Below, one piece after another: positions 18,698 to 34,819 of a DNA stretch of 64,000 nucleotides. The stretch is from assembly GCA_963704165.1 (NCBI GenBank), contig CAVPHD010000001.1, forward strand, positions 160,001-224,000. Reading direction: 5' to 3'. Position numbers and translations under genes: made by a program. Each line of letters begins with the position of its first letter. Position 1 is the first letter of the stretch. The notes below the pieces were generated by a model. That model saw only the letters and a list, made by a program, of their open reading frames with translations. It did no database searches and was not told the DNA's origin. The stretch comes from an uncultured delta proteobacterium. Lineage in GTDB: Bacteria; Myxococcota_A; UBA9160; SZUA-336.

Positions 18698-19829
18698 TCA
18701 GCCCGGATCGCGCGAGACACAGATCGCCGAGAACCCCCCGCCGGGGCTGCGCAGGTTCGTGACCTGGCCCTGGTAGACGCGCGCGCCGAGCAGGAGCACG
18801 CGATCCCGGTACGCATAGGCGCGAACGTCGAACTTCATCGTGCGCGGTCCTTCGAGCGTCTCCACCTCGACCTCGCTCGGCTCGATCCGATGCTGCGCGA
18901 GAAAACCGGGTACGGCCGCGATCTCTTCGAACTTCCGCCGCGAGATCTTGTCTCCGCGGTACACCGACTTGCTGCCGTAGGCGGCGCACGGCTTGAAGAC
19001 GAGGTTGCGCCGCTCGGACCACGCACGCTCGAGACCGAGGTCGGAGAGCAGGCGCGTCTCGGGGACGATTCCCTGCAGGAACTCGACGTCGTCGGGTGCG
19101 ACCCCGAGCTTCGAGAGCGCGGCCGCAGACGAGAAGATCCCGAGCCTCTGCTTGTTCGCGAGCAGATGGTGTTCGCGCGGGGACGGCGTGACGACGACGT
19201 CGCCCGCGAGGTACGCTTTGCGAAGGCGAGCCGTTCGGGGACTCGCGAGCGTGAAGTCGGTGTCGCGCAGGTAGACGAGATCGGGAAGCGCTTCGCCGGG
19301 CCGTGCGATGTCCTCGGTGTCGCGGATCTCCGTCGGGATTCCCGCCTGCTCGAAGAGCTTCACGAGCAGCTCGAACTCGGGGAACAGGAACTGCTCGTGC
19401 GGACGCTCGTCGGCGATCACGATCCGTCGGAGCTCGGCCTCGGGTCCACGCACCGCGCGGAATTCCGAGATGAACTGCCCCACGATCCGCGCCTGCACCG
19501 TCTCGACGGGCAAGAGGTCCTTGCAGACGCACGCAAGGCGTTCGGGATCGCAGAGCGACGCCGTGTGCAGACCGTTGAGCAGCGCGCCACCGGCGTTGGT
19601 GTTGACCTCGATCAGGCGTGGGCCGTCGGCGGCCGAGATGGAAGTCGTAGCCCATGAACACGCCCCGATTGCCGGGCTCGAAGCGGACCCCCAGCTCGGC
19701 GCCGGCGTCGACCTGGGCCTGGTACGCGGGCGAGTGCGCGATCGCGTCGAGCAGTGCGACCGTGCGCTGGATGGCGTCGAAGTGCACGGGATCGAGCGCG
19801 ATGATCGTGCGGCCGGCGTAGGGAATCAT
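18698..19829 (-). CDS. Uncharacterised ATP-grasp-like ligase (glutathionylspermidine/glutathione synthetase-like), one frameshift near 19634
   Basis: [10 protein letters not shown] then [12 protein letters not shown] (ExN), [41 protein letters not shown] overlaps the acr3 stop (ATGA). Confidence 0.65.
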
Positions 19830-20860
19830 TCCGTAGGGAAGCCCGCCCGCGTGCGGTTCGCGAACGCGACCAGCGAGAGCATGACCGGGACCTCGACGAG
19901 CACACCGACCACCGTCGCGAGCGCAGCCCCGCTCTCGAGTCCGAACAAACCGATCGCGACGGCGACCGCCAGCTCGAAGAAGTTCGAGGTGCCGATCAGC
20001 GCCGCCGGCGCCGCGATCGAGTGCGGCACGCCCCAGGCCCACGCCCAGGCGTACGCGATGGCGAAGATGCCGTAGGTCTGCACCACGAGCGGTGCGGCGA
20101 TCAGGGCGATCAGGGCGGGCTGCGCGAGGATCCGCGGCCCCTGAAACGCGAAGAGCAGTACGACCGTGCCGAGCAGACCGAGAATGGTGTAGGGCTTGAG
20201 GCGCGCCGTAAAACGGCCGACCGCGTCGCGTGCTCCACTGGCCTCGAGGTGCCGCCGCGTCCATCCGCCCGCGGCGAGCGGAATCACGACGTAGAGCCCG
20301 ACCGAGAGCAGCAACGTGGACCACGGCACCGCGACGTCGGCGATTCCGAGCAGAAACGCCACGATCGGCGCGAATGCGCCGATCATGACCAGATCGTTCA
20401 CCGACACCTGCACGAGCGTGTAGGTCGCGTCACCCTGCGTGAGCTGGCTCCAGACGAAGACCATCGCCGTACACGGCGCCGCCCCCAGGAGAATCATGCC
20501 CGCCAGGTACTGGCGGGACTCCTCGGGCGGGATGAGTCCGCGGAAGACGATGTCGAAGAAGAGCACGCCGAGAGCGAACATCGTGAAGGGCTTCACGAGC
20601 CAGTTCACGACGAGCGTGATTGCGAGCCCCTTTGGCCGCTCGCCGACACGGCTGAGCGTGGCAAAGTCCACGTTCACCATCATCGGATAGATCATCACCC
20701 AGATCAGCACCGCGACGACCAGGTTCACGCTCGCGATTTCGAGCGAGGCGACCGCGGCGAAGACGGACGGAAACGCGCTGCCGAGGCCGATGCCGGAGGC
20801 GATGCAGAGCGCGACCCAGATGCTGAGCCAACGCTCGAAGGCGCCGAGCCCCGGACTCAC
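19826..20860 (-). CDS. acr3: ACR3-family arsenite efflux transporter
   Basis: [65 protein letters not shown]. Confidence 0.95.
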
Positions 20861-21297
20861 GCGCGCGCCCGGACGAGCGCAGCGATGTGCCGCTCGAGCT
20901 CGTCGTGGGTACGCCGGAACGCGGCCCGCACCGTGGCTTCGGAGCCGTGGACGGCCGCCGGATCGTCGATGCTCCAATGCAGCCGGGTCGGCGCTCCCGG
21001 AAAGACCGGACAAGCCTCTCCGGCGGCGCCAGCACAGACCGTCACGACGAGATCGAGCGATGGCGCACGCGGCGCCGCGAACTCGTCCCAGCTCTTGCTG
21101 CGCAGGTTCTCGGTCTCGTATCCGAGTTCGCGAAGCAGCGCGAGCGTCTGCGGATGCGGTGCGGACTTCGGCCGGCTGCCCGCACTACAGGCGGCGAACC
21201 TCCCGTTTCCGAGGCGTTCGAGCAGGCATTCCGCGATCAGGCTCCGCGCGGAGTTCCCCGTACACAGGAAAAGGACACGCTTGGGTGGCTCAGCCAC
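20857..21297 (-). CDS. arsC: Arsenate reductase, thioredoxin-dependent LMW-PTP type
   Basis: P-loop [33 protein letters not shown]. Lies between arsR and acr3. Confidence 0.92.
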
Positions 21298-21643
21298 GCG
21301 TCGTTCTCGATCGCGACGGGATTCTCGCCGACCGCCGCGTGCCGGGAGCGCAGACGCGCGCGCGGCTGCAGCAGTTCTCGGTCAGGTACGCGATCAGCTC
21401 CTCGATCGCGGAGAACTCCGCGGAGTAGATCAGCGAGCGTCCGTCGCGACGGCGGCCGACCAGACCCGCGCGCGAGAGCTGCGCGAGGTGAAACGAGAGG
21501 GTCGCTCCGGGCAGGTCGAGCAGCGTCGAGATCCGGCCCGCGGGAAGTCCGTCCGGACCGTGCTGCACGAGCGTGCGGAAGATCCGCAAGCGTGTTTCCT
21601 GCGCCAGGGCCGCGAGCGCGCCGACGGCTCTCAATAATTCCAT
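21290..21643 (-). CDS. arsR: ArsR/SmtB-family repressor with C-terminal CC-x5-C arsenite site
   Basis: ALAQETRLRIFR, TLSFHLAQL..AGLV, GRSLIY, YLTENCCSRARVC. Confidence 0.92.
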   Translation of the reverse strand: MELLRAVGALAALAQETRLRIFRTLVQHGPDGLPAGRISTLLDLPGATLSFHLAQLSRAGLVGRRRDGRSLIYSAEFSAIEELIAYLTENCCSRARVCAPGTRRSARIPSRSRTTRG

Positions 21644-21679
21644 GAATCCGGAAATATCGAAATCCCTGAACCGTGTCAA
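21634..21679 (-). promoter_or_regulatory. Putative sigma70 promoter and ArsR operator of the ars operon
   Basis: Minus strand TTGACA (21679-21674), 17-nt spacer, TATTTC (21656-21651). The AT-rich imperfect inverted repeat TTTCC-N8-GGAAT overlaps the ATG. Confidence 0.65.
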
Positions 21680-21725
21680 TTCCCGGTCCGAACCGGCCGC
21701 CCCCCCCGGGCTAGACTCCCGCGAA

Positions 21726-22814
21726 GTGAAGGCCCGACTTCTCGCGATCCTGCTCCCTCTCGCACTCGCGTTGGCCTGCAGCGCCGACGAGCCGACGCGC
21801 AAACCCGCTCCGATCCGGATCGACCCCATGGTCGATGCGAACTTTCCCCCCAAGGGCCCGATCGAGCTGCGCCCAACGGCGCCACCCGCGGAAGGAACGC
21901 TCTTTCAGCTGCAGCTGAAGTACGAGGGGCGCTCGGAAGCCCTGAACGAGGCCTCGAGCACGGCCACGCCCGAAACCCTCGACGAGCTGATGCAGCTCGA
22001 GCTCGACTACCGCCAGGTGCCGGTCGCCTCCCCCGACGAGGACAGCCTCGCCTCATCGCTCGTACTCGACGCCCTGCGCCGGCGGATGCGCGCATCCCCG
22101 CCCGGTGCGGAGATCAGCCTCGAGATCGGCGACGACCGAATTCGCGCCCAGGCCGACGACAAGATCGACGTCGATCTGCGCGGCGCGCAGCCGAAGGGTG
22201 ACCTGACCCCGCGCGCGGTCCTGAACCGGCCCTTCGCGCTGCTCGTCAGCGACCTGCGAGGGGGCCCGAAGAGCGTGACGCTCCGCGGCATCCCATCGGC
22301 GAAACGGCTGCTCGCGTCGCTGCCGATCCGCGAGTCGATCGGCTGGGTTCAGGTCGAGTTCCCGGACGGGCCGGTCCTCGCGGGAGAGAGCTGGACCGCA
22401 AAGCGATTCCTCCCGAACGCGATCGGCCGGCTCGGCGTCGGCATCGAGATCGAGTACCGCCTGGTCGGATTCGAGCGCGTGGACGGGGTGCCGTGCGCGC
22501 GCGTGTCGCTGCGCGCGAAGAAGGACACCGAGAACGCGCCGAGCGAGTTCGGCTTCACGTTCGAGCAGCTGCGCTACGAGGTCAGCGGTGACGCGTGGAT
22601 CTCGCTCGCAAACTCGGAAGTCCAGATGCTTCGAGTCGAGGACATCGCAGCGGTCAGCTACCGCCGCACCACCGGCACGACACCAGCGCGATTCCGCGCC
22701 CGCTACGAAGGACGCGCATCGCTCGAACGGTTGGCGGTCGAGACGACGTCGAGCCTGGCTTGGGCGGATGGCACCAAGCGCTTCGCCGAAGTGAACACGA
22801 CGCGCCGGAAGTGA
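21726..22814 (+). CDS. Hypothetical lipoprotein (beta-strand-rich)
   Basis: Lipobox LALAC after a hydrophobic leader. Alternating beta patterns such as IEYRLVGFERVDGVPCARVSL. Confidence 0.7.
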   Translation: MKARLLAILLPLALALACSADEPTRKPAPIRIDPMVDANFPPKGPIELRPTAPPAEGTLFQLQLKYEGRSEALNEASSTATPETLDELMQLELDYRQVPVASPDEDSLASSLVLDALRRRMRASPPGAEISLEIGDDRIRAQADDKIDVDLRGAQPKGDLTPRAVLNRPFALLVSDLRGGPKSVTLRGIPSAKRLLASLPIRESIGWVQVEFPDGPVLAGESWTAKRFLPNAIGRLGVGIEIEYRLVGFERVDGVPCARVSLRAKKDTENAPSEFGFTFEQLRYEVSGDAWISLANSEVQMLRVEDIAAVSYRRTTGTTPARFRARYEGRASLERLAVETTSSLAWADGTKRFAEVNTTRRK

Positions 22815-22872: not shown

Positions 22873-25152
22873 TCAGAACTGGTAGGTCACTCCCATCCAG
22901 ACCTCGTCGCGCTTCTCCATCATGTTGTCGGCGAAGCTCTCTTTGCCGAACCACGGACCCTCGGCGTAGCGGCGGAAGTCCTCGTTGATCAGCTGCCAGT
23001 TGCCCGAGTTCCAGGTGGTCGGATCGGCCAGGCAATCCGTGCCGCCGCTCGGACAGATGTCGCGGATGTTGTGCACTTCCTTTCCGCCCTGGATCAGGTT
23101 GATTCCGACCTCGAACGAGATGCGGTCGTTCATCACCCACTTCAGCTTCGGACCGGTGATCCAGCCGTGCGACGCCCAGTCGTAGGCGACGAAGTTCGTG
23201 AGGATGATCGAGTCGTTGCGCCAGTAGTTCTCGATGAAGAACGTCGAGATGACGTTGTTCTCGAACTGCGTCATGCCGCGCCGGTTGTTCCCGTCGTAGT
23301 CCATGATGTGCTCGACGAAGGTCTGGAACGACACGAACGCGGTGCGGTCCTTGTTCAGGATCGGGATGAAGAAGCTGCGATCGAGACCGATCGCCGCGAG
23401 CAGCACGTCGCTGCTGTCGATACCGTCGACCTTGTTCGTGTTGTTGATCTTGCGATCGAAGTCGTAGGCCGTCTCGACCCGCAAGACGGTGTCGATGCCG
23501 GGGATCTGGTAGTCCGCCGATCCACCGAGCGTGAACGTGCGCGGATACTCGAGCTCGACCTGGCTCGTCGACCAGATCCACCCCAGCGGCTGGAGTCCGG
23601 TGCCCGAGTAGCAGAGGGGATCGGAACCGCATGCGGGCCCGAGAACTCCGGTCCAGTACCCGAGCGCGGTAGCGCTCGCGGTATTGACCGAGGTCTCGTC
23701 GTAGGGGTTGAAGCCGGGAATGATTCCATCCGCTGGGCCTCCCGCGAAGAGCGCCTGCAGGAAGAGCATCATCGCGGGGTTCGGGTTGGCCGTGCTGTAG
23801 TGGTTCTTGAAGCGAGCGACCGGGATGTCCTGGATGCCCCAGAAGCCCGAGAGCGAGAACGCGATCGACGGCTCCGGGATCCGGAACTCGAAGCGGAAGC
23901 CGGGCTCGGTGTTTCCGAGCGTCCAGTTCCGCTCGTCGACCGATCCGACGGACAGGTTCAAGAGGCCGTGGCTTCCGACGTCGGCGCGGCCCTCGCACGC
24001 GGCCGTGAACGCCCAGAAGTCACCGCACTGCCCGACCTGAATCGGCTTGAAGCGATCGACGACCCAGACGAGCTCGAGCGAGAAATCCTGAAGCGGCCCG
24101 ACCGTGCCAAAGCTGTGGATGAGGTCGAGCGAGAGCGACGGGATGCGCCGGTCTTCGAGCGACGGGAAGACGTTGTGGCTGCCGACGTCGATCGGATTCA
24201 CGAGATCCTGAAGGCGGAACGCGTCGGTCTTGCCCCAGACGATCTGCTGGCGGCCCATACGCAATTGCGTGTCCTTGTACTTGAGCTCGAGGTACGCCTC
24301 GCGCGCCCAGCACCAGTCGTGCACACCGTCGAAACAGCGCGTCGAGAGCTCCCCATCGGTGTGATTGATGCCGTACGGGGCCTGCTTGTCGATCGAGTTG
24401 CGGTCGCCCTTCAGGGCGCGGCCTCCGAAGGAGTAGATGTTCGTCCCTTGCGGCAGGCCGAGCCCCGCCAGGTGGGCGTCGCCCTGCTCGACCGAATCGA
24501 GGAACGTGCTGGTCGCCGAGGTCAGCCCGAGGCCGTAGAGCGTGTCGGCCGCGATGTTCCACGCCTTCGCGTCCGAGTTCCCGCCGAGCATGCCCTGATC
24601 GGAGCCGCGCGTCCGCGAGGCCGCGCCGAGGATCCCGAAGAAGATCGTGTTGTCGAAGACGAACTGCGGGTTGTTCTTGCCGGTGAAGAAGTTCGCCGTA
24701 TCGGCCGCGGTGTCGCAGAAGCCGCCGTTGATGCAGACGCCGGAGCCCGGGAAGTTGTTTCCCTCGATCGCATCCTTGGCGTTTGCCGCGGTCTGCGTGC
24801 CCGCCGCGCCCGACCGGCGTCGGTCGCCGAAGTAGTGCGGATACAGATCGTAGACCGCGTCGTACGTCGGCGTGACGATCCCGTGGAAGCTCACATCGAA
24901 GTCGGAGTCGGTGTACAGCCGGACGTCGAAGTTCATCTCGAGAGTGTTCATCCACTGCGTCATCTGAAAGTCTTTGGAGAGACTCGGCGAGTTGAAATAC
25001 ACGCTCGAGTTCGCCTTGCCGTGCAGCTCGAAGTTCTCCGACCACCAATCCGCCTGCGCGACGCTCGCCATCGAGAGCCCGATCATCACCCCCAGCAGCG
25101 GAGAGATCACGCGCACGACTCGCGACCTCGTCAGGTCCACCCTCTTCGTCAT
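22873..25152 (-). CDS. DUF1302-family outer-membrane beta-barrel protein
   Basis: Signal peptide. YDAVYD, REAYLE, RMGRQQIVWGKTD.FRLQDLVNP.D. C-terminal aromatic motif VTYQF. Context with MMPL, YCF48 and DUF1329. Confidence 0.8.
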   Translation of the reverse strand: MTKRVDLTRSRVVRVISPLLGVMIGLSMASVAQADWWSENFELHGKANSSVYFNSPSLSKDFQMTQWMNTLEMNFDVRLYTDSDFDVSFHGIVTPTYDAVYDLYPHYFGDRRRSGAAGTQTAANAKDAIEGNNFPGSGVCINGGFCDTAADTANFFTGKNNPQFVFDNTIFFGILGAASRTRGSDQGMLGGNSDAKAWNIAADTLYGLGLTSATSTFLDSVEQGDAHLAGLGLPQGTNIYSFGGRALKGDRNSIDKQAPYGINHTDGELSTRCFDGVHDWCWAREAYLELKYKDTQLRMGRQQIVWGKTDAFRLQDLVNPIDVGSHNVFPSLEDRRIPSLSLDLIHSFGTVGPLQDFSLELVWVVDRFKPIQVGQCGDFWAFTAACEGRADVGSHGLLNLSVGSVDERNWTLGNTEPGFRFEFRIPEPSIAFSLSGFWGIQDIPVARFKNHYSTANPNPAMMLFLQALFAGGPADGIIPGFNPYDETSVNTASATALGYWTGVLGPACGSDPLCYSGTGLQPLGWIWSTSQVELEYPRTFTLGGSADYQIPGIDTVLRVETAYDFDRKINNTNKVDGIDSSDVLLAAIGLDRSFFIPILNKDRTAFVSFQTFVEHIMDYDGNNRRGMTQFENNVISTFFIENYWRNDSIILTNFVAYDWASHGWITGPKLKWVMNDRISFEVGINLIQGGKEVHNIRDICPSGGTDCLADPTTWNSGNWQLINEDFRRYAEGPWFGKESFADNMMEKRDEVWMGVTYQF

Positions 25153-25234: not shown

Positions 25235-25987
25235 TCACCGATTCTGCGCGTCCTTTTTCGGAAAGTCGAAGTCCAGAAGTGTCTGCTCGACCATCTGCGC
25301 TCCGCCCTCGCGCTCGTTCTTCGTGACGCTCCGCAGCAATCCGACGCCGCGCGCGTAGTAATCCAGATAGGAGAGGAGCGGCGCGTCCGGGTGAACGGAC
25401 GCGTCCCAGTACTCCGACTCGACCAGGAGCACGTCCGCAAATCTTCCCGCCGGAACGACGAGCTCGGCGATGGATTTGGTCCGACCCGTCCATTTGATCA
25501 GGCCACCGCCACCGTTCTCGGGCTGCTGAAGGAGCCGCGTCTCGTGGGTCCACGAAGCCCCGGGAGAGGCGTCGATCGGCATCACGCGAGCGGGATCCTC
25601 TTCGCCGAGCATTCGCAGCCGATCCGGAGTTCGGTAGTCGAGTCCGGTGTAGCGGCAGAGAAAGCCGTCGCGAGCGACGTACGCGGTGGGCCCGACCTCG
25701 GCAATTCCGAGCGCGTCCGCGCCGAGCGCGTGCTCGTCCATGATGAAGGCGACGCCGGGAAGGCCTTCGACCGCGCTGTCGCCGCGCGCGAAGACCTCGA
25801 CTTCGACGCCGCCGATCGCAAGCGCGTACTTGTAACGCCAGTGCGCACCGACCACGAGCGGGAAGTACTCGTTCGCCGCGACCCCCGAAGCGCGCGTGGG
25901 TGGCGAGGAGTCGCATGCGCCGACCAGCCCCCCGAGCCCGCAGAGCAGAGCCAGAGCGAGCACCGGGCGGCGACGCGCTACGCCCAT
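25235..25987 (-). CDS. Hypothetical lipoprotein (YFPL..G..W.Y / VPAG.F family, DUF3108/TapB-like)
   Basis: Lipobox VGAC. EYFPLVVGAHWRY, VVPAGRFADV, YYARGVGL. Paralog of 34082-34819. Confidence 0.75.
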   Translation of the reverse strand: MGVARRRPVLALALLCGLGGLVGACDSSPPTRASGVAANEYFPLVVGAHWRYKYALAIGGVEVEVFARGDSAVEGLPGVAFIMDEHALGADALGIAEVGPTAYVARDGFLCRYTGLDYRTPDRLRMLGEEDPARVMPIDASPGASWTHETRLLQQPENGGGGLIKWTGRTKSIAELVVPAGRFADVLLVESEYWDASVHPDAPLLSYLDYYARGVGLLRSVTKNEREGGAQMVEQTLLDFDFPKKDAQNR

Positions 25988-25994
25988 CCTTTCG

Positions 25995-28900
25995 CTAGTC
26001 CCGCTTCTCTTCCGCGGGGCCCGCCGCGAACTCGGGCCGGAACACGGCCGTGAACGCGGGGACGAGCAGCATGGCACCGATCATGTTCCCGATCAGCACC
26101 ACCGACAGAAGCAGGCTCATGTCCGCGGCAAAGCGCAAGCTCGAGATGAAGTACCAGAAGATGATGCCGCCCACCAACGTCGAGGCGGTGAAAAACACGG
26201 CCATGCCCGTGGTCTGGATCGCGATCCGCACGGCCTCGACCACATCGTGCCCGCGTTTCCGCTCGTGGACCACCCGATCCATGATGTACAGCGCGTAGTC
26301 GACCCCGACGCCGACGCCGAGCGCCTGGACCGGCAGCGTGTTCACGTCGAAGCCGATCCCGGTCCAGTACATGTAAGCGAGCGACACGAGCGCCGCGGTG
26401 CCGAGCGACAAGATCAGATACAGCGCGATCGAGAACGCGCGGTAGGAAATCCACACGATCATGAACGTCGTGAAGAACGAGGCGATCAGCGTGGCGTTGT
26501 TGCTGCCCTCGACCTCTTCGTTGCTCGCCGCGAGCACGCCCATCAGCCCGGACGCGAGCGCGAAGCTCGTCCCCTCGGCCCAGCGCCCCGACTCACGGCG
26601 CTCGTAGTCTCCAGACTGGTATTTCACCCAAAGCTCGTACGGCTCGTACAGGCCGCGCTTTCGCACCTGCGCGTTCACGCCGCGCTCGGGCGAACCCCAC
26701 TCCGCGACGACGTCGAACTTGCGCCGGTCGAGCTCCGCCGCGTTGATCAGCGCGTAGGCGGTGACGAGGTCGAAGCCCTCGACCTCTGCGATCTCCTCGA
26801 CGTCCGCGTTCGCGATCTTGGTGACCGTGTCGTAGCCGCTCTCGACGAGCACCTCACGAAGCTCGCGCGTCATCCGCGGAAGCGTGAGGATGCGGGCCTG
26901 GGAGTCCTCGGGGGCCGGGTCGGTGCGATCCGGGGACTCGACCTGCTGCTTCTCGTACTGCCCGTCGGGCTGTTGCAGGTAGACACCGAGCTCGACCGGC
27001 CGAGGCGGAAGCAGTGGTCCGATCCACCAGAAGACCGTCGCGATCCAGTCGTCCTCGGGAACCTCGAGCCGCACGGCGACCTTCCCGGTCGGGCGCGCCT
27101 TGAGATAGCCCTTGATGCGCTCGACCGCGTGGCGAATCGTGTCGCCCTGGTGGTCGCCGTAGAAGAGCCGGATCGCGGCATTGCGCGCGACCTGATCGCG
27201 CACCGGATTCAGCACGCGGGGATCGGGCGATCCCGCTTCGTACAGATACAGGAGTCCGCCGATCTCCTGCGGCGTGTAGGGAATGGTCGACCAGCGCGGA
27301 TCCGCGTTGTGGAACGTGCGGTTGATCGCCTTCAGGTACTCGACGATCGAGAGCGTGCCGCCGACACCGGGCTCCTGCTCCATGAAGCGCTGGAACGCCT
27401 CGATCTCGGTCATGACCTCGGGCCGGTGGATGCCGCCCTCCATCTCCGTCTCGACCACGATCGTCAACTCGTCCGCGCCGTAGAAACGCTTGCTGATCGC
27501 CGCCGAGGACTGGTTGAACTCGTGGTCCGGCCAGAGGATCGGCGTGCCCGGCCGCGACTCGCCGACCTTCACGTACGGCGCGACGACGAACGACGAGACC
27601 ACGATCACGAGCCAGACCGCTAGGATCACGCGCGCGGAGCGGGGCTCGGTCGCCCAGCGCGACATCACTCGCAGGATCTTCACGACCGGCGCGGGCACGT
27701 AGTGTTCCGTGCTCTTGGGCGCGGGGAAGTAGGCGATCATGAGCCGGTTCAGGAGCATCTCCGTCACCGCGATCGAGAGCGCCCAGAACGCGCCGACCAA
27801 CGCCACCTTCTTCATCAGCGCGATCGACGAGACGTAGATCACGAGGATGCCGAAGGCGTCGGTCAGGATCGCGAGCGAGCCGGGCAAGAGGAGCTCGGCC
27901 ATCGACGAGATCACGGCTTCGTCCTTGTCGCCGTTCAGGCGCTCGTACTCCTCGTAGAAGCGCTCGACGAACTGCACCGAGTGACTCACCGCACGCGCGG
28001 TGATCAACATCGGAATCACGAGCACGAGCGGCTCGAGCTGGTATCCGACGAGCGACGTGAAGCCGAGGCCCCAGACCGCCGAGACGACCGCGCCCGTGAA
28101 CGGCATCGCGATGCCATAGAAGCGCCGGAAGTAGACCGCGAGCAGGATCAAGAGGATCGCGAGCGAGAGCAGGAGGATCAGGATGATCTCGGGCAGGAAC
28201 TCGAAGGTCCAGCCGGTCAGGATCGGCTGCCCCGTCAGATGGACCTCGGCCGAGCCATCGGCCTCGAGCTCGAGCTTGAGCTCGTAGATCTCCTTGAAGA
28301 TCGCGGAGTAATCGAGTCGGCCCTCGATGAAGCCGGCCGACACCAGCGCCGCTTGATCGTCGAGTGACACGAGCCGACCGAAGACCTGTTTGTTCTGGTG
28401 GATCCGGTCGGGGAGCGTGGCCATGATCTCGCTCGGGATCAGATTCCCGTCGGGACCGGAGAGCTCCTCGCCCCGGAGCTCGTAGCCGGGGGGCAGCTCT
28501 TCGAGGCGCAGGATCAGAAACTCGATCTGCGCGTTTTCCTTGCGCAGCAGGCGAAGGCGCTCGGCCTCCTTGCGATCCTTCATCTGCTCGAGCCGAAGCG
28601 CCCGCGTGGGTCCGAGCTCCGCGACGAGCTCGTCCTTCCGCTTCGCCGCGTGTGCGCGCAGCTCTTCGAGGGTGGTCGGCACCGGCTCGGTCTTCCGGCT
28701 CGCGGCGATCCGGAGCGTCCGGCGAGTGAAGAACTGCGCCTCGAGCAGAGCGATGGCCTGCTCGCCGATGATCTGCGTCGACCGCATGATCCCTTCGCGG
28801 TCCACTTCCTGGTCCCGGATCGTGATCGCGGTGATCGACGAGATCTGTCCGTGATCGACGCCCTCGACCTTGTCGATCTGGTCGGTGAACGCGAAGACCT

Positions 28901-29165
28901 TCTCGAGGAACTGCTCGTCGTAGATCGTGCCGCTCTTCGCGATGATCGCGGCGGTGACGACGTTCGCGCTCCCGAACTGCCGGTTGTACTTCTCGTAGAC
29001 CTGGATGAACGCGTGATTGCGCGGCAGCAGATCGACGAACTGGCTGAACACCTGCAGCTGCAGCGCGTGGTAGCCGAAGAAGAGCGTCGCCGCGCCAATG
29101 ATGGCGAGGTTGACCCCGCGGTACTTGATGAAGAACCGCGAGAAGCGGACCGCGAACTGATCCAT
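25995..29165 (-). CDS. MMPL/RND-family transporter with two large insertions (1056 aa)
   Basis: Two repeats of one TM helix, a periplasmic domain and about 5 TM helices. DLLPRNH, ARAVSHSVQF, AILTDAFG, GVGVGVDYALY, TTGMAVFFTASTL. Confidence 0.92.
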   Translation of the reverse strand: MDQFAVRFSRFFIKYRGVNLAIIGAATLFFGYHALQLQVFSQFVDLLPRNHAFIQVYEKYNRQFGSANVVTAAIIAKSGTIYDEQFLEKVFAFTDQIDKVEGVDHGQISSITAITIRDQEVDREGIMRSTQIIGEQAIALLEAQFFTRRTLRIAASRKTEPVPTTLEELRAHAAKRKDELVAELGPTRALRLEQMKDRKEAERLRLLRKENAQIEFLILRLEELPPGYELRGEELSGPDGNLIPSEIMATLPDRIHQNKQVFGRLVSLDDQAALVSAGFIEGRLDYSAIFKEIYELKLELEADGSAEVHLTGQPILTGWTFEFLPEIILILLLSLAILLILLAVYFRRFYGIAMPFTGAVVSAVWGLGFTSLVGYQLEPLVLVIPMLITARAVSHSVQFVERFYEEYERLNGDKDEAVISSMAELLLPGSLAILTDAFGILVIYVSSIALMKKVALVGAFWALSIAVTEMLLNRLMIAYFPAPKSTEHYVPAPVVKILRVMSRWATEPRSARVILAVWLVIVVSSFVVAPYVKVGESRPGTPILWPDHEFNQSSAAISKRFYGADELTIVVETEMEGGIHRPEVMTEIEAFQRFMEQEPGVGGTLSIVEYLKAINRTFHNADPRWSTIPYTPQEIGGLLYLYEAGSPDPRVLNPVRDQVARNAAIRLFYGDHQGDTIRHAVERIKGYLKARPTGKVAVRLEVPEDDWIATVFWWIGPLLPPRPVELGVYLQQPDGQYEKQQVESPDRTDPAPEDSQARILTLPRMTRELREVLVESGYDTVTKIANADVEEIAEVEGFDLVTAYALINAAELDRRKFDVVAEWGSPERGVNAQVRKRGLYEPYELWVKYQSGDYERRESGRWAEGTSFALASGLMGVLAASNEEVEGSNNATLIASFFTTFMIVWISYRAFSIALYLILSLGTAALVSLAYMYWTGIGFDVNTLPVQALGVGVGVDYALYIMDRVVHERKRGHDVVEAVRIAIQTTGMAVFFTASTLVGGIIFWYFISSLRFAADMSLLLSVVLIGNMIGAMLLVPAFTAVFRPEFAAGPAEEKRD

Positions 29166-29197: not shown

Positions 29198-30343
29198 TCA
29201 GGGAACGCCGGACGCAGGCGAAGCGGCTCCGGGGGTCGATTCCCGATTGCCGCCAATTCCGGTGAGTGGCGGCTCAGGCGCCGTGGACGTGGTCGGAGTC
29301 ACCGCCGCAATCCATGACTCCCCGCCGTCCTCGGAGCGGAGGACGAGCCCTCGCTCGCCCACCACGATCGCCTCGGTCTGGCTCGCGAACGTCACCGCGG
29401 AGAGCCAGTTGAAGAGCGGCGGGCGTTCGGCATCTCGCCAGCTTCGGCCCCCGTCGCGCGAGATGTAGATCACGCCGCGGTTGCCGACGGCGATGCCGTG
29501 TTCGCCACTCCAGGCGATTCCGAACAGACCGGCCGTGGTCTCGACCGAGCGCGACTCCCAGACTCGGCCCGAATCACTCGACACGAGCACGCTGCCCGCG
29601 AGACCGACCGCCGCGGCCGGGCCCGTGCCGGCGCCGGACAGGTCGAAGAGGTAGAGGTCGTCGGGTGCACCGTGGATCTCCCGCTCCCCCGTCCATGTCT
29701 CGCCGCCATCGCGGGTTCGAAGCAGGGTCGCGAACTCGCCGGCGATCCACCCGTCCGTCGGGCTGGTGAAGGCCACCGCGTTCAGCAATCGCTCCAGCAC
29801 GTTCTCGTCCGCATACTGCACCGCGTCAAAAGACACGCTCTCCCATCTCTCGCCATCGCGGGTTCGCAACACGACTCCGAGATCCCCGACCGCGAACGCG
29901 TGCGTCGAGGAGATCGCCGCAACACTGAACAGGTTCGTGTCGAGCGGACGCGCATCGCCCATCTCGTCCGTGAGCAAAACGGGTTGCAGCGTCCAGGACG
30001 CGCCACCGTCCGACGAGCGCAGGATCGTGCCGTTGGCGCCCACCGCCCAGCCGGTCTGCTCGTCGGCGAATGAAACGCCAAAGAGCGTGTTCGCCGTCGG
30101 CGTGTCGGGCTGCATCCAGGTGCGCCCCGCGTCGGTCGAGCGCAGGATCGTTCCCCAATATCCTCCGGCCCAGGCGTTCTGACCGTGCGACGTCACGGCG
30201 TAGAGGTTGGCTGCGGGCAACTTCCAGGTTTCGAATCGAGCCGGATCGAGAGCCGCGTGGACGGAGAAAGCACCGATCAGGCCGAGCAGGACGCTCAGGG
30301 CGACCCACACCGGATGGCCGTTCAACGATCGACGCCAGTTCAT
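29198..30343 (-). CDS. YCF48/BNR-repeat beta-propeller protein
   Basis: Repeated G.IL.S.DGG.(S/T)W Asp-box units and a signal peptide. Directly upstream of the MMPL gene. Confidence 0.9.
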   Translation of the reverse strand: MNWRRSLNGHPVWVALSVLLGLIGAFSVHAALDPARFETWKLPAANLYAVTSHGQNAWAGGYWGTILRSTDAGRTWMQPDTPTANTLFGVSFADEQTGWAVGANGTILRSSDGGASWTLQPVLLTDEMGDARPLDTNLFSVAAISSTHAFAVGDLGVVLRTRDGERWESVSFDAVQYADENVLERLLNAVAFTSPTDGWIAGEFATLLRTRDGGETWTGEREIHGAPDDLYLFDLSGAGTGPAAAVGLAGSVLVSSDSGRVWESRSVETTAGLFGIAWSGEHGIAVGNRGVIYISRDGGRSWRDAERPPLFNWLSAVTFASQTEAIVVGERGLVLRSEDGGESWIAAVTPTTSTAPEPPLTGIGGNRESTPGAASPASGVP

Positions 30344-30577
30344 CGTACCCCCACGAGATCCGAGCGGATGGATGCCGCGTATCATCGTTAGGACCGTGCG
30401 CAGGGTCAACCGGGATGCTCGGGGTCGGGACTGAGAACGCAGGAATCCGCTTCACATGCTTGAAAGCCAGCGAATCAGCGCGCATCATCAGGTTTCAAGT
30501 CGGGGTGGCCGTTACGTTCGTGGCGGCTGCGTGTTGGGCTGCGACCGACGCAGTGGAATCTAGTGGAGGGAGGTCCG

Positions 30578-31927
30578 ATGCGACGATCACAATGGGTGTT
30601 TTCGTTTGCGGTCCTGGTCGCGTTCGGCAGCGCGCCCGTCGCGTCTGCAGAGGTGGCCGCCGGAACGAAGATCACCTCCGCCAATGCGAATCTGGCGCAG
30701 GGCCTGATCCCGGACGAGTTGATTCCGTACGTGATAGACGGCAACGCCGACCTGAACATCACGGTGGCGGATGCCGGGAAGTACACACCGCACGCGGAGT
30801 ACGTGAAGGCCACGGTGGACAACGCGTGCAAGGCGAAGCTCGATGCGAAGGGCTTCCTGGCGAACTACGTCGCCGGTCAGCCGTTCCCGTACTCGGAATG
30901 GGCGAAAGAGGCGACCGGACACAAGTGTGATCTGACGCCGGACGATCCTCAGTTCGCACTGAAGCTGGCTTGGAACGTGAACTTCCGCTGGCAGGGTGGC
31001 TCGGGACTGAACCTGCCTCACTGGGGGTTCAGCAACATGCGCAACAACGGCAAGGAAGTCTGGCGCATCGCTCAGGGCGAATATCGCCGCACCTACTTCT
31101 CCCATCGTGCCGATCTCTTGCCCGCGACGACGAAGCTCGTCGAAGGCACCGACATCGAGTGGGCCGAGTTCTTCGACGTGAAGACCCCCTTCGATCTTCG
31201 CGGCACGATGTTCCTGCTGTACCGCTACGACGTCGAGAACAAGGAAGACGACACCTGGGCGTACATTCCGGCTCTACGCCGCGTGCGCCGCATCGCCGCC
31301 ACGCAGAAGTCGGACTCCCTGCTCGGCACCGAGTTCACGCTCGAGGACTTCTACATCTTCGCCGGCTACGTCTGGGATCATCAGTGGGAGTTCAAGGGCG
31401 AATCGACGAAGCTCGGCGTCATCAACTCCAAGCGGAACTGCTTCCCGAGCGTGATCCCCGGCTCGACCGCAACCGGTGGCGCGGTCAGCATGGTGCGACT
31501 GGGAACGGACGACGAGTGGTACACCTGCAAGTTCGCCCCGTACAACGCTCTCCCGTTCGCGGGCGAGACCTTCGAGAAGCGCACCGCGTTCCAGCTCGAC
31601 GACATCCCGCGGCAGAAGGGTCACCCCTACAGCCGCAAGATGATCTGGTACGACAAGGAAACGATGATGCCGTTCTACTCGATCATGTACGACCGCGCGG
31701 GCAAGCCGTACCGGATCATCGGCAGCGTCTTCAAGTGGAGCGAGGACAGCCCGGTGCCGGAGAACAAGGGCCGCAGGGCGGCGAACTACTCGCACATCAT
31801 GGTCGTCAACGTGCAGAACGGGAATTCGCACACCGGCCAGTTCGACAACGCGAACGCGATGGAGTTCGACGCCGGTGCGAGCCGCAGGTACTACGACACC
31901 ACGCGGTTGAAGACCCTGGGTCGGTAG
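30578..31927 (+). CDS. DUF1329-family periplasmic protein (LolA-like)
   Basis: Signal peptide. GTKITSAN, GQPFP, AWN, PFDLRG, WAYIPALRRVRR, HPYSRK, YDRAGK. GGAGG RBS. Confidence 0.88.
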   Translation: MRRSQWVFSFAVLVAFGSAPVASAEVAAGTKITSANANLAQGLIPDELIPYVIDGNADLNITVADAGKYTPHAEYVKATVDNACKAKLDAKGFLANYVAGQPFPYSEWAKEATGHKCDLTPDDPQFALKLAWNVNFRWQGGSGLNLPHWGFSNMRNNGKEVWRIAQGEYRRTYFSHRADLLPATTKLVEGTDIEWAEFFDVKTPFDLRGTMFLLYRYDVENKEDDTWAYIPALRRVRRIAATQKSDSLLGTEFTLEDFYIFAGYVWDHQWEFKGESTKLGVINSKRNCFPSVIPGSTATGGAVSMVRLGTDDEWYTCKFAPYNALPFAGETFEKRTAFQLDDIPRQKGHPYSRKMIWYDKETMMPFYSIMYDRAGKPYRIIGSVFKWSEDSPVPENKGRRAANYSHIMVVNVQNGNSHTGQFDNANAMEFDAGASRRYYDTTRLKTLGR

Positions 31928-31990: not shown

Positions 31991-33223
31991 CTATTTCGGG
32001 GCAGGAGTCTGCTTCTCGACGTCGATGCGGAGCTCGCGCTGGCGTTGGCGGCGGAGCTCACGCGCGCGTCGGATCTCGCCGGCGAGCTCTACCTCGACCG
32101 AGCGCGCGCGCAGAAGTTCGCGCAGGCGCGAAACCTCGAGCTCGATCTCGCGTTGCTGTCCCGAGGCCGGCTCGTAGAAGACGACTCGTTCCGCGACCTG
32201 ACGCCCGCCACCGACCCCGATCGCGGTCACCGTCACCAGGTTTCGACCGACGACGAGCGGAACGAAGCCGTCGAAGCTGCCGTCGGCGAGCAGGCGGATC
32301 GCGCGACCGGGCTGACGGGTCGTCTGGTTCTCGAACTCGACCTCCGCGACTTCGGAGAGCTCCACGGCGGGTAGATGGAAGAGCACCTCGCCGGGTCGTT
32401 CGATCTCGGTGAGCGATCCGTTCGAGACGCGCGACATCAGATCGAGCACGTCCCGACCGCGCACGGCTTCGGGACCGAGCGCGAAGCTGTGGATGTGCAT
32501 GTCGGTCTCGCCCGCCGAGCGCGCGGCCGCGATCGCGGCCCGACCGGGGTTCGGTTCGGGCGGCGGCAGGGTCGGGTAGCCATCGGACAGGAACAAGATG
32601 CTGCGCTTCCGGCCGGCCTTGCCGTCGTCCGGCGCGTCGAGCAGCGCCTGGCGTGCGACCGTCAGGGCGGCGGCGTAGTTCGTGCCGCCGTACCAGCCGT
32701 GGCGCAGGTCGAGCGTGTCGAGCGCCGCGTCGACCTGTGCACGCGTCGCGACGAGCGGAGCGACGAGCTCCGCCCGATCGCCGAATGCGATCAACGCCAC
32801 GCGCGTTCGCTCCGGATTGAGCAGTTTCAACAATCGGCGCACGGCCGCGAGTTCAGCCGCTGCGATCGTGTCGCCGGGGTCGTCGCAGAGAAGCTCGGGG
32901 GATGCGGAGCCCCAGTAGTCCTCGCGAATCTCGGGGCTCGACTTCCCGACCACTCCGTTCTCGTTCACATCGACGCCCGATCGCAGGCGGGTGCTGGCGG
33001 AGAGGTCGATCACGACCGCGACATCGTGGTAGTGCAGGCGCCCGGCGCCGGTCGAACCATCGACCTCGATCATCGCGAGCGGAAGCCGCTGCACGATTCC
33101 GTCGCCGGGTTTGCGCAGATCGATCCAGACCTGCTCATCGCCGGAGGCGTCCGTCTGCGCGCCCGCATCGGCGGCCGCGACCGCTCCGAGTACGAGCACC
33201 ACGCCTACGAGTCGCATCACCAC
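31991..33223 (-). CDS. Secreted von Willebrand factor A (VWA) domain protein
   Basis: Signal peptide. MIDAS DLSAS, VALIAF, GGTN, LFLSDG, IHSFALG. Charged coiled-coil C-terminus. Confidence 0.85.
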   Translation of the reverse strand: MVMRLVGVVLVLGAVAAADAGAQTDASGDEQVWIDLRKPGDGIVQRLPLAMIEVDGSTGAGRLHYHDVAVVIDLSASTRLRSGVDVNENGVVGKSSPEIREDYWGSASPELLCDDPGDTIAAAELAAVRRLLKLLNPERTRVALIAFGDRAELVAPLVATRAQVDAALDTLDLRHGWYGGTNYAAALTVARQALLDAPDDGKAGRKRSILFLSDGYPTLPPPEPNPGRAAIAAARSAGETDMHIHSFALGPEAVRGRDVLDLMSRVSNGSLTEIERPGEVLFHLPAVELSEVAEVEFENQTTRQPGRAIRLLADGSFDGFVPLVVGRNLVTVTAIGVGGGRQVAERVVFYEPASGQQREIELEVSRLRELLRARSVEVELAGEIRRARELRRQRQRELRIDVEKQTPAPK

Positions 33224-33274
33224 GATCGGGAGATTCCTCGCGTTCCTTGGGAGTCGCGTACTATACGCAACGCG

Positions 33275-34072
33275 ATGCTCGGACCCAGTCTCGGACGCCT
33301 CGTCGTTGCTTTGATTCTACTCGTGCCGTCGCTCGCGTTCGCGCAAGCCGATGCGGATCCGCTGGCCGAGGCGCGGGCCTGCGCGCGCCGCAACCTGCCG
33401 ACGACGACGCTGGAGCTGCGTGCGACCTTCACGAAGGTCGATCGAGTCGGCGGCGAACGCACGAGCCGCGCGAAGGTGATCGGAAAGAAGCTCGACGACG
33501 GGCTTCAGCGAGCGGTGCTCCGCTTCGATCGGCCCAACGACATCCGCGGCACCGCCATGCTGATGATCGAGAATCCGAGCGGACCGAGCGAGTTCTACGT
33601 CTACACGCCGGCACAGAAGCGAGTGCGGCGGATCTCGGGGCGTAGCTCCGGGGGTCTGTTCGGTACCGACTTTTCCTACGACGACTTCGAGAACTGGCGC
33701 GGATTCTCCGAACGCAGCAAGACCGAACGCCTGCCCGACGCCGTCGAAGCCGAGCGAACGGTGTACGTGCTCGCGGGCGAGCCGCCGCCCGAGGACGAAT
33801 CGAGCTACGAGCGAGTCGTCAGCTACGTCGATCGCGAGACCTGCGTCGTGATCCGCATCGACTCCTACGAACCGGGCGGGAAGCTGCGCAAGGTCCTGCG
33901 CGCGGATCCGGCGTCGGTCGAGAGAAGCGGAGTCATCTCGATCGCGCGCGCGATCGAACTCGAGGACGTGCTCGACGGCACCCACACGAAGGTCGCGATC
34001 GAGTCGATCACGATCGACGGCGACCTTCCCGACCGGATGTTCCGGCAGACCGACCTCGCCTCCGGCAGGTAG
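33275..34072 (+). CDS. Outer-membrane lipoprotein-sorting (LolA-like) protein
   Basis: Signal peptide. RFDRPNDIRGTAML, VYTPAQKRVRRI, LFGTDFSYDD, YERVVSYVD. Confidence 0.85.
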   Translation: MLGPSLGRLVVALILLVPSLAFAQADADPLAEARACARRNLPTTTLELRATFTKVDRVGGERTSRAKVIGKKLDDGLQRAVLRFDRPNDIRGTAMLMIENPSGPSEFYVYTPAQKRVRRISGRSSGGLFGTDFSYDDFENWRGFSERSKTERLPDAVEAERTVYVLAGEPPPEDESSYERVVSYVDRETCVVIRIDSYEPGGKLRKVLRADPASVERSGVISIARAIELEDVLDGTHTKVAIESITIDGDLPDRMFRQTDLASGR

Positions 34073-34081
34073 GCAGACCCG

Positions 34082-34819
34082 CTAGCGCCGGACGTTCGCG
34101 GTGTTCGCGTCGTCGAAGTGGAAGGCGACGAGGTTCTGCTCGACCGATGTCCAGAACCACTGGGCGTTGTTCCGCGAGACGCTGCGAATCAGGCCGACGC
34201 CGCGCGCGTAGTAGTCCTCGTAGCTGTGCAGGGGTCGGTGCATGTCCCACTCCAGATCCCACTGCTGACTGCGAACGACGATCACGTCGTCGAAGCTGCC
34301 CGCCGGGACGCTCACCCGGCCGGCGGATTCGACCTCGGCCGTCCAGGCCTGACCGGCGCTCCCGGATTCGCGGAAGATCTCGGTGCGGTCGCTCCAGCTC
34401 TGACCCGGCGAGGGATCGACGGGCAGGAACGACATGCCCTCGCCACCGAAGATGCGAACCTGACCGTCCGCCTCGAGCGAGACGGCAGCGATGCGCGTCA
34501 GGTACCCGTCGGCGACGCGATAGCCCACGAGCCCTTCGGGCTCGAGTCCGTAGATCCGCCCGGAGAGCTGCTCCTCCATCAAAAAGAGCCGCTCGTCCGA
34601 GCCGCGAATCACGTGTTCGCCGCGCGCGGTCACGTCGAGCCGCGTGCTTCGCGAGAAGAAGCCTGCGCGAAGCTCGTATCGCCAGTGCCCACCGTTCTCG
34701 AGCGGGAAGTACTCTCGCGACGCCGCACCGGATGCGCGCTCCGGCGCGTCGCTCGCGCAGCCCGTGGAGCCGAGCCACGCGAACACCAGCACGGACAACG
34801 CGACTCCTCGACCCGTCAT
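34082..34819 (-). CDS. Hypothetical lipoprotein, paralog of 25235-25987
   Basis: Lipobox-like STGC. EYFPLENGGHWRY, VSVPAGSFDDV, YYARGVGL. Confidence 0.75.
   Translation of the reverse strand: MTGRGVALSVLVFAWLGSTGCASDAPERASGAASREYFPLENGGHWRYELRAGFFSRSTRLDVTARGEHVIRGSDERLFLMEEQLSGRIYGLEPEGLVGYRVADGYLTRIAAVSLEADGQVRIFGGEGMSFLPVDPSPGQSWSDRTEIFRESGSAGQAWTAEVESAGRVSVPAGSFDDVIVVRSQQWDLEWDMHRPLHSYEDYYARGVGLIRSVSRNNAQWFWTSVEQNLVAFHFDDANTANVRR

Follow-up and report, generated by a model that had tools for sequence, protein, structure and literature searches.

The gene described here lies in a window of 64,000 nucleotides from an uncultured delta proteobacterium (GenBank assembly GCA_963704165.1, contig CAVPHD010000001.1, positions 160,001 to 224,000 of the forward strand); the window means this whole stretch, and coordinates without a locus name are counted from its first letter. 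The gene encodes an RND/MMPL transporter resembling AmeD, situated in an AmeABCD-type cassette (DUF1329, YCF48, RND and DUF1302 genes), and the second periplasmic domain of the protein carries, on a predicted stalk at the outer side, a helix-hairpin-helix (HhH) domain. In the sequences compared, this domain is present and conserved, has lost its glycine-hydrophobic-glycine (GhG) motifs, and is replaced by other contents in the same slot of paralogous pumps. We suggest that the HhH domain, held in an exchangeable slot of a scaffold, is a periplasmic protein-docking tip and not a DNA binder, a reading to which we assign a probability of about 0.45. The gene and its parts are as follows.

25995..29165, minus strand: RND/MMPL transporter, AmeD-like (HAE3-type), 1056 amino acids, 12 predicted transmembrane (TM) helices (Pfam, NCBIfam, model, fold matches)
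28434..28763, minus strand: clade-specific helical insert of ~110 amino acids, about aa 135-244, in the first periplasmic domain (model, alignment)
26898..27095, minus strand: N-terminal scaffold half, aa 691-756, with a strand, a Trp-rich helix, a GPLxP motif and beta strands (HHalign to the insert of the acyl carrier protein (ACP) clade, model)
27012..27047, minus strand: Trp-rich helix, aa 707-718, WIATVFWWIGPL, ending in a conserved GPL motif (model, alignment)
26727..26897, minus strand: (HhH)2 domain, aa 757-813, the slot content, similar to the NusA acidic repeat (AR) and without GhG (Pfam, NCBIfam and PDB matches, model)
26568..26726, minus strand: C-terminal scaffold half, aa 814-866, with beta strands, W823 and ELW at 844-846 (HHalign, model, alignment)

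The transporter

The open reading frame (ORF) of the transporter has no internal stop. Its product passes the Pfam MMPL cut-off (54.6 bits, E 1e-14; cut-off 20.5), and its top NCBIfam model is TIGR00921, HAE3 (E 1.5e-35), at 122.4 bits and under the cut-off of 351.9. A full-length AlphaFold model made from 106 sequences (pLDDT 87.9, pTM 0.84) has 12 TM helices; its secondary structure and the hydropathy place large loops between TM1 and TM2 and between TM7 and TM8. A structure search with the model returned HpnN, MmpL3/4/5, NPC1 and SecDF at Z scores of 35-41. Acidic residues of the core TM helices are kept throughout the homologues (E401 and D436 in 110/110, D956 and D963 in 114/114), and by analogy with MmpL3 and HpnN these may be the proton-coupling residues.

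The helix-hairpin-helix domain

A first-pass annotation, made from the sequence alone, had placed an HhH module in a ~175-residue insert in the second periplasmic domain of an MMPL transporter, and had taken the uninterrupted frame as an argument against a chimeric join. The model agrees on the position: an insert of ~176 residues (aa 691-866; nucleotides 26571-27101 translate in frame into a 177-residue insert) lies between TM7 and TM8, where the second periplasmic domain bounds it with its last helix (674-690) and its last strand (867-871). Misassembly of transporter and HhH domain is ruled out by 113 homologues with an intact insert and by a flat GC profile. Of 24 sequencing runs listed, the best contained only 0.08 of the words of the sequence, and no RNA run was listed. 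The homologues came from a search with aa 680-880; found among 2055 candidates, they share 51-88% identity over 94-100% of the region. By a hand count PF14520 is already present in the precomputed annotation of 55 of them, and their source labels are Myxococcota or Deltaproteobacteria metagenome-assembled genomes.

The motif quoted in the first-pass annotation corresponds exactly to aa 759-811 (26733-26891). Over aa 760-810, Pfam HHH_5 (PF14520) reaches 27.5 bits when the full protein is searched (cut-off 27) and 33.7 bits with the segment alone, and the model shows five helices in a dual-hairpin fold at aa 757-813. The top NCBIfam match is the NusA C-terminal repeat TIGR01954 (30.7 bits, under the 48.15 cut-off). 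A sequence search of the PDB with the segment returned NusA first (E 1.5e-4) and then the N-termini of RadA/Rad51; rows for protein A, without a passing stretch, were interspersed at E 2e-4 to 0.03. In structure comparison the domain superposes on NusA AR2 (2jzb) at Z 9.6 and 1.7 Å over 64 residues and on 1u9l at Z 8.7, beside POLQ (Z 10.3), AF1548 (Z 9.7) and the Rad51 N-terminus (Z 9.4). As the top matches are tied within 1 Z unit, the modelled fold by itself does not single out NusA. A search of the ESM Atlas with homologue P0003 gave no usable match.

The resemblance to NusA put forward at first pass is nevertheless also seen in the wider phylum. The HhH form occurs in 22 of the 201 genomes of the class (which we take to be GTDB UBA9160), including 11/11 of the same genus and 6 of 12 families. 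Across 301 genomes of the phylum there were eight matches outside the class, all weak (E 1.6e-5 to 9e-4), and at seven of these loci the match is to the C-terminal repeats of NusA, at up to 29.5 bits; of the sequences obtained from the phylum, these are the nearest outside the family. The NusA repeat of the source genome itself scores only 3.9 bits. When HhH was searched for as a stand-alone protein, 41 candidates below 580 residues gave seven matches; six look like fragments, as they contain MMPL or are labelled RND, and the remaining one, P0300 (235 residues), shows HHH_5 only.

The domain is well conserved. Over 114 sequences the mean frequency of the top residue is 0.75 in HhH, compared with 0.63 and 0.71 in the two scaffold halves. 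Nonsynonymous differences per site (pN), taken over 11 loci, are 0.19 in HhH, 0.23-0.25 in the scaffold and 0.11 in the TM regions; the corresponding synonymous value (pS) is compressed by high GC, and pN/pS ratios are therefore rough. D799, L800 and T802 are found in 114/114 sequences, R764 and Y804 in 110/114 each, and position 801 is V or A. L800, V/A801 and Y804 share one face of helix 5, and to these, as to R764, the aligned positions of NusA AR1 and AR2 are polar or Gly.

The GhG motif is absent from both hairpins in all 114 sequences. The sequence is LP-R/A/S in hairpin 1 and G-F/Y-D in hairpin 2, with Asp fixed at the second Gly position of the latter; a second Gly occurs in neither hairpin (0/114). 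Median net charge is -4 and only 7/114 domains are positive, a measure of net charge and not of surface potential. DNA binding by the domain is unlikely, because GhG is lost throughout and the median charge is negative. The HhH assignment made at first pass, the likeness to the NusA repeats and the choice of a putative docking role above DNA binding of the ComEA kind all hold up.

Among known domains of this fold, the NusA repeats AR1 and AR2 (TIGR01954; 2jzb, 1u9l) are close in character, being acidic dual HhH units of five helices without GhG that bind protein. AR2 has been described as a dual HhH that binds SuhB (PMC6614801), and the title of PDB entry 2jzb gives it as a binder of alpha-CTD. 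The domain studied here differs in falling below the NusA family cut-off, in occurring as one copy inside a membrane transporter, with a predicted periplasmic position, and in the L, V and Y on helix 5. With ComEA, RuvA, UvrC and the RadA/Rad51 N-terminus it shares the fold and a score above the Pfam HHH_5 cut-off. In contrast to the DNA-binding (HhH)2 domains, in which the GhG hairpin is reported to contact the sugar-phosphate backbone (PMC8313265), it has lost both GhG motifs, is net acidic and lacks a DNA-processing context.

A scaffold with exchangeable contents

The first-pass annotation had treated the ~175 residues as one HhH-bearing insert. The HhH domain is there, but the remainder belongs to a class-wide scaffold with an exchangeable slot: ~120 residues of the insert are common to four paralogue clades, all of which are represented in the source genome. 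The three further paralogues in that genome are 35-45% identical to the transporter and have the same insert scaffold. Across the four clades the slot holds the HhH domain, an ACP fold, an acidic helical segment, or only a short linker (empty slot). Measured from anchor to anchor, the region spans 31 residues in insert-less relatives, 200-212 in the HhH type, 230-238 in the ACP type (C3) and 180-183 in the third type. HHalign of the HhH-clade against the C3-clade insert (99.8%, E 1.8e-30) is confident on both flanks and aligns nearly nothing across aa 750-813. Structural models predict the 12-TM topology, a periplasmic position of the insert, the HhH and ACP folds and, in both cases, insertion of the helical domain between the same two scaffold strands.

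The ACP-type paralogue (L001:8432-11608, minus strand; G000:C3) has 36 homologues. Its slot profile gives many matches to ACPs (best E 0.0014), and the slot model matches carrier proteins in Foldseek (TM score ~0.8, E 0.01). In fold comparison the best match reached Z 11.3 with 1.8 Å over 74 residues, the listed matches being ACP or peptidyl carrier protein (PCP) types or complexes that contain carriers. Ser is found at the carrier (phosphopantetheine) serine column in only 3/36 sequences, and Pfam PP-binding (PF00550) was found in 1/36, at E 0.074. A Cys pair is conserved in the scaffold of 32/36. In the third type the slot has a helix, often acidic, followed by a Trp-Pro motif; judged from match lengths and the loci fetched, this appears to be the widespread form of the family. 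The family profile matches 138/201 genomes of the class, a number that may include a few weak insert-less matches since the profile contains flanking core. The empty-slot clade comprises L003, L037 and L038 together with P0158, P0160 and P0161. No fifth slot state was seen within the scaffold among 33 of the 150 best representatives inspected by eye and 62 measured between anchors; P0181 is a shortened acidic-slot type.

A tree was made from core columns without the inserts, with 44 rows (a random draw of 12 for each of three clades, plus 3 empty and 5 insert-less), and rooted on the five insert-less relatives, which have YCF48 neighbours. Each slot type is monophyletic (ultrafast bootstrap 97-100; the unrooted HhH split has 100); the HhH clade and the empty clade are sister groups, as are the ACP and acidic clades. 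As each slot type is a clade and the root lies among insert-less rows, the sequences indicate that HhH and ACP entered the slot independently.

Within the scaffold, the GPL region is almost invariant among the homologues (G716 and P720 in 114/114, P717 in 113/114). The preceding Trp-rich helix, which in the first-pass annotation may dip into the membrane, is a hydrophobic stretch of 12 residues with a hydrophobic moment of 0.29-0.36. Its block is confident in the full-length model (pLDDT 87 and 84) and poor in the isolated paralogue insert (below 50), which points to packing of the helix on the transporter body or the membrane surface and not on the insert. Matches to RND, HhH or ACP took up both structure searches, which therefore say little about the beta fold of the scaffold.

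A second insert distinguishes the HhH clade. The ~110 residues at about aa 135-244 of the first periplasmic domain are modelled as three long helices with one short hairpin and have no Pfam match. They are kept in all 104 homologues with an intact N-terminus, are missing or different in the three other paralogues and in P0232, and contain conserved hydrophobic stretches at 140-149 and 217-225.

Two distant AmeD-like transporters without the scaffold have a PDZ-type domain in the equivalent loop, in P0232 in the first periplasmic domain (aa 205-291, 33.2 bits, above cut-off) and in P0250 in the second (aa 589-681, 22 bits, under cut-off). Another AmeD-like transporter, P0211, ends in ankyrin repeats (aa 865-945). 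Tandem duplicate transporter genes were seen for the HhH type in L012 (1649-8172) and for the acidic-slot type in L016, L017, L022 and L032. Other MMPL-type genes of the source genome (regions C3:383309 and C4:177922) have, by eye, putative C-terminal fusions to LolA-like and cyclic-nucleotide-binding-like parts.

Possible functions of the slot domain

If the HhH domain is a docking tip, helix 5 would present a hydrophobic face made of L800, V/A801 and Y804, together with R764 of the first hairpin. From the conservation pattern we infer a hydrophobic contact surface of this kind, which would bind a putative partner from the cassette: the YCF48 propeller, the DUF1329 carrier or the lipoprotein encoded next to the pump. 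In this way the four paralogous pumps of the cell would each pair with partners of their own, and the cassette, to judge from its relatives, would move a hydrophobic compound across the envelope at the expense of the proton gradient. Several points weigh against this proposal. Partner and docking are both deduced from sequences and models, and the exposure of L800, V801 and Y804 was read from the NusA alignment, so that the scaffold or the second insert may instead cover the patch. A sister clade does without any slot content, making the tip dispensable for some members, and the HhH form is limited to the 22 of 201 class genomes given above. The clades differ throughout the protein (35-45% identity) and specificity need not come from the slot. 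Coevolution analysis of HhH contacts (mutual information with average product correction, MI-APC) was uninformative at an effective depth of 37.

As the main alternative, the HhH domain may be a structural brace, packing on the aa 135-244 insert of the same chain or of a neighbouring protomer and so clamping or extending the periplasmic head. The two inserts co-occur, and do so only in the HhH clade; the first insert has conserved hydrophobic stretches of its own, the whole chain is predicted at a pTM of 0.84, and in MmpL10 a coiled-coil insert is reported to drive oligomerisation (PMC12183618). On the other hand, the contact between the two inserts is hypothetical, and the ACP clade keeps a folded slot domain without the first-domain insert, so that bracing would not be the general reason for the slot. 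Brace and docking tip alike make the HhH domain a protein-contact module, in line with the first-pass guess. That the slot is simply a permissive surface loop, into which small stable helical domains were recombined and persist as passengers or spacers without a specific ligand, seems doubtful to us. Four unrelated states in one slot, the existence of an empty clade, the loss of the functional motif in both captured domains (GhG in 0/114, carrier Ser in 3/36) and the gain of inserts by partner genes too (YCF48 with its OmpA-like stretch, and the DUF1302-like protein with its ~1800 residues, see below) would all fit such a loop. However, HhH is better conserved than the scaffold, and the near-invariance of D799, L800, T802 and Y804 at the predicted surface goes beyond what maintenance of a fold usually needs.

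Binding of periplasmic DNA or RNA, which would give the transporter a part in the uptake or sensing of nucleic acids, is a very improbable function. DNA-associated proteins make up HHH_5 and most of the fold matches, POLQ, UvrC, Y-family polymerases and DisA among them, and ComEA is a precedent for a periplasmic HhH domain. The ComEA-like, UvrC-like and RadC-like HhH motifs of the source genome (names read from sequence) nevertheless keep G-I/M-G, in contrast to the missing GhG, fixed Asp and acidic charge described above, and competence genes are absent from the conserved neighbours of the cassette. NusA-like and ACP-like folds are normally cytoplasmic, and an unusual topology could in principle bring the insert to that side, where both domains would meet their usual partners. 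The binding of cytosolic AcpM to MmpL5 (PMC12346298) might be cited in its favour, but we regard it as the least credible of the explanations. The insert has no hydrophobic segment of TM length (19-residue hydropathy peaks at 1.07), and the model puts it between TM7 and TM8 in the periplasmic sandwich, the position of RND loop 2 (PMC11633376). Lys and Arg are mostly more numerous in the predicted inside loops (the outside loop TM5-6, with two, is an exception), and the Cys pair in the ACP-clade scaffold would fit a periplasmic disulfide.

Comparison with MmpL pumps and implications

A structural parallel is found in the mycobacterial MmpL pumps, which have an extra subdomain in periplasmic loop 2 (PMC11633376). 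MmpL4, MmpL5 and MmpL10 (PD3 or coiled-coil insert) share with the transporter the RND/MMPL fold, a loop-2 subdomain and, through AcpM, the association of an ACP with the pump. The extra part of the MmpL proteins is a coiled coil and AcpM a separate cytosolic protein, whereas here a beta scaffold bears a globular tip; unlike AcpM, the ACP fold of the paralogue is fused, predicted to be periplasmic, and without a conserved carrier serine.

In the searchable literature, largely without subscription papers, we found no paper that describes the scaffold or the insertion of HhH or ACP. The transporter and cassette types are already known, as are coiled-coil periplasmic subdomains of RND pumps (MmpL5, MmpL10), and automatic annotation already records MMPL together with HHH_5 and in one case 'RND exporter/acyl carrier protein'. 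The new element is a scaffold whose exchangeable globular tip comes from folds that are typically cytoplasmic. A tentative generalization is that this RND family evolved a periplasmic plug-in socket: docking folds of the cytoplasm (a NusA-type repeat, an ACP) would have been captured independently, would have lost their original chemistry, and would act as address tags by which each paralogous pump is matched to the right partners in the periplasm and outer membrane, the PDZ domains of distant relatives being a third arrival at the same solution.

The DUF1302-DUF1329-YCF48-RND cassette is widespread, and how its parts assemble is not settled in the literature found. The source genome offers a natural swap experiment, with one scaffold in four slot states and separate partner genes for each. 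If partner choice is set by the tip, the tip marks a periplasmic docking site on this type of pump, and assembly can be tested by swapping domains; here, too, would be a clear example of folds typical of the cytoplasm, the NusA repeat and ACP, being reused beyond the inner membrane. Were the tip only a brace or passenger, it would still be a tidy case of domain insertion and would reveal a tolerant RND insertion site for engineers.

The gene cassette and its surroundings

Synteny of the cassette was counted in 11 full loci of the HhH clade (L004-L014), some of which end early. The neighbouring genes of the window are listed with their frequency in these loci.

29198..30409, minus strand: YCF48/BNR beta-propeller (AmeC-like), directly upstream of the transporter gene (PF14870, E 2.8e-30; upstream in 11/11 loci)
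30563..31927, plus strand: DUF1329/LolA-like periplasmic protein (AmeB-like), divergent (PF07044, E 2.5e-37; 10/11 loci)
25235..25987, minus strand: predicted lipoprotein of 250 amino acids (LVGA-C lipobox by eye; no Pfam family; downstream in 9/11 loci)
22873..25152, minus strand: DUF1302 outer-membrane beta-barrel (AmeA-like) (PF06980, E 1.8e-16; downstream in 6/11 loci)
31991..33223, minus strand: VWA-domain protein adjoining the cassette, a doubtful member of the system (PF13519, E 4e-14; 7/11 loci)

The start codon of the lipoprotein gene lies 7 nucleotides past the stop of the transporter gene. In L010 the lipoprotein has a short match upstream, and in L009 none. Its product and that of 34082-34819 (minus strand) are paralogous small predicted exported proteins, 37% identical, that flank the cassette, and one of them has a weak DUF3108-like match. 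A LolA-like gene is located near 33215-34072 (plus strand), beside the cassette. The genes nearby give no clear indication of a substrate.

AmeD of Castellaniella defragrans is a HAE3 pump of 787 residues tied to monoterpene tolerance (PMC6394551). DUF1302-DUF1329-BNR-RND clusters show cofitness in several bacteria and have been proposed to export envelope components (10.1101/072470); such clusters matter for growth of P. putida on fatty esters (10.1101/2020.07.04.188060), and DUF1302 and DUF1329 are predicted to form a complex (PMC13499233). With AmeABCD and the cassettes of Pseudomonas and Shewanella (HAE3-type RND, COG1033) the locus shares the same four adjacent gene families and a 12-TM RND protein with two periplasmic loops. 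The likeness to AmeD is based on gene families and the HAE3 model. Compared with AmeD and insert-less relatives (~785-795 residues), the transporter is longer, at 1056 residues with two inserts, and compared with AmeABCD there is an extra lipoprotein gene and the DUF1329 gene is divergent. The accessible parts of the descriptions of AmeABCD-type cassettes mention no HhH, ACP or scaffold insert.

The cassettes of the paralogues have peculiarities of their own. The YCF48 protein of the ACP-type cassette (L001:11614-13089, minus strand) has an internal OmpA-like, possibly peptidoglycan-binding, stretch. This stretch was found in all 8 ACP-type loci tested (L023, L027, L028, L030, L031, L033, L034 and L035; five above cut-off) and in 0/7 loci of other types. 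The ACP-type transporter gene is followed by one for a protein of 1832 residues (L001:2896-8394, minus strand) that has DUF1302-like stretches, contains very large inserts and ends in Phe; five related loci also have ORFs of ~1800 residues or more. Near the acidic-slot paralogue (L002:8060-11077, plus strand; G000:C4) there is no YCF48, DUF1329 or DUF1302 match, either here or in related loci, and its neighbours in G000:C4 are TetR, luciferase-like, ChsH2-like and DUF3047 genes. Finally, the window contains at 19826-21853 (minus strand) a small arsenic-resistance-like cluster, consisting of an SBF/Acr3-type transporter gene, a low-molecular-weight phosphatase/ArsC-like gene and, by eye, an ArsR-like ORF.

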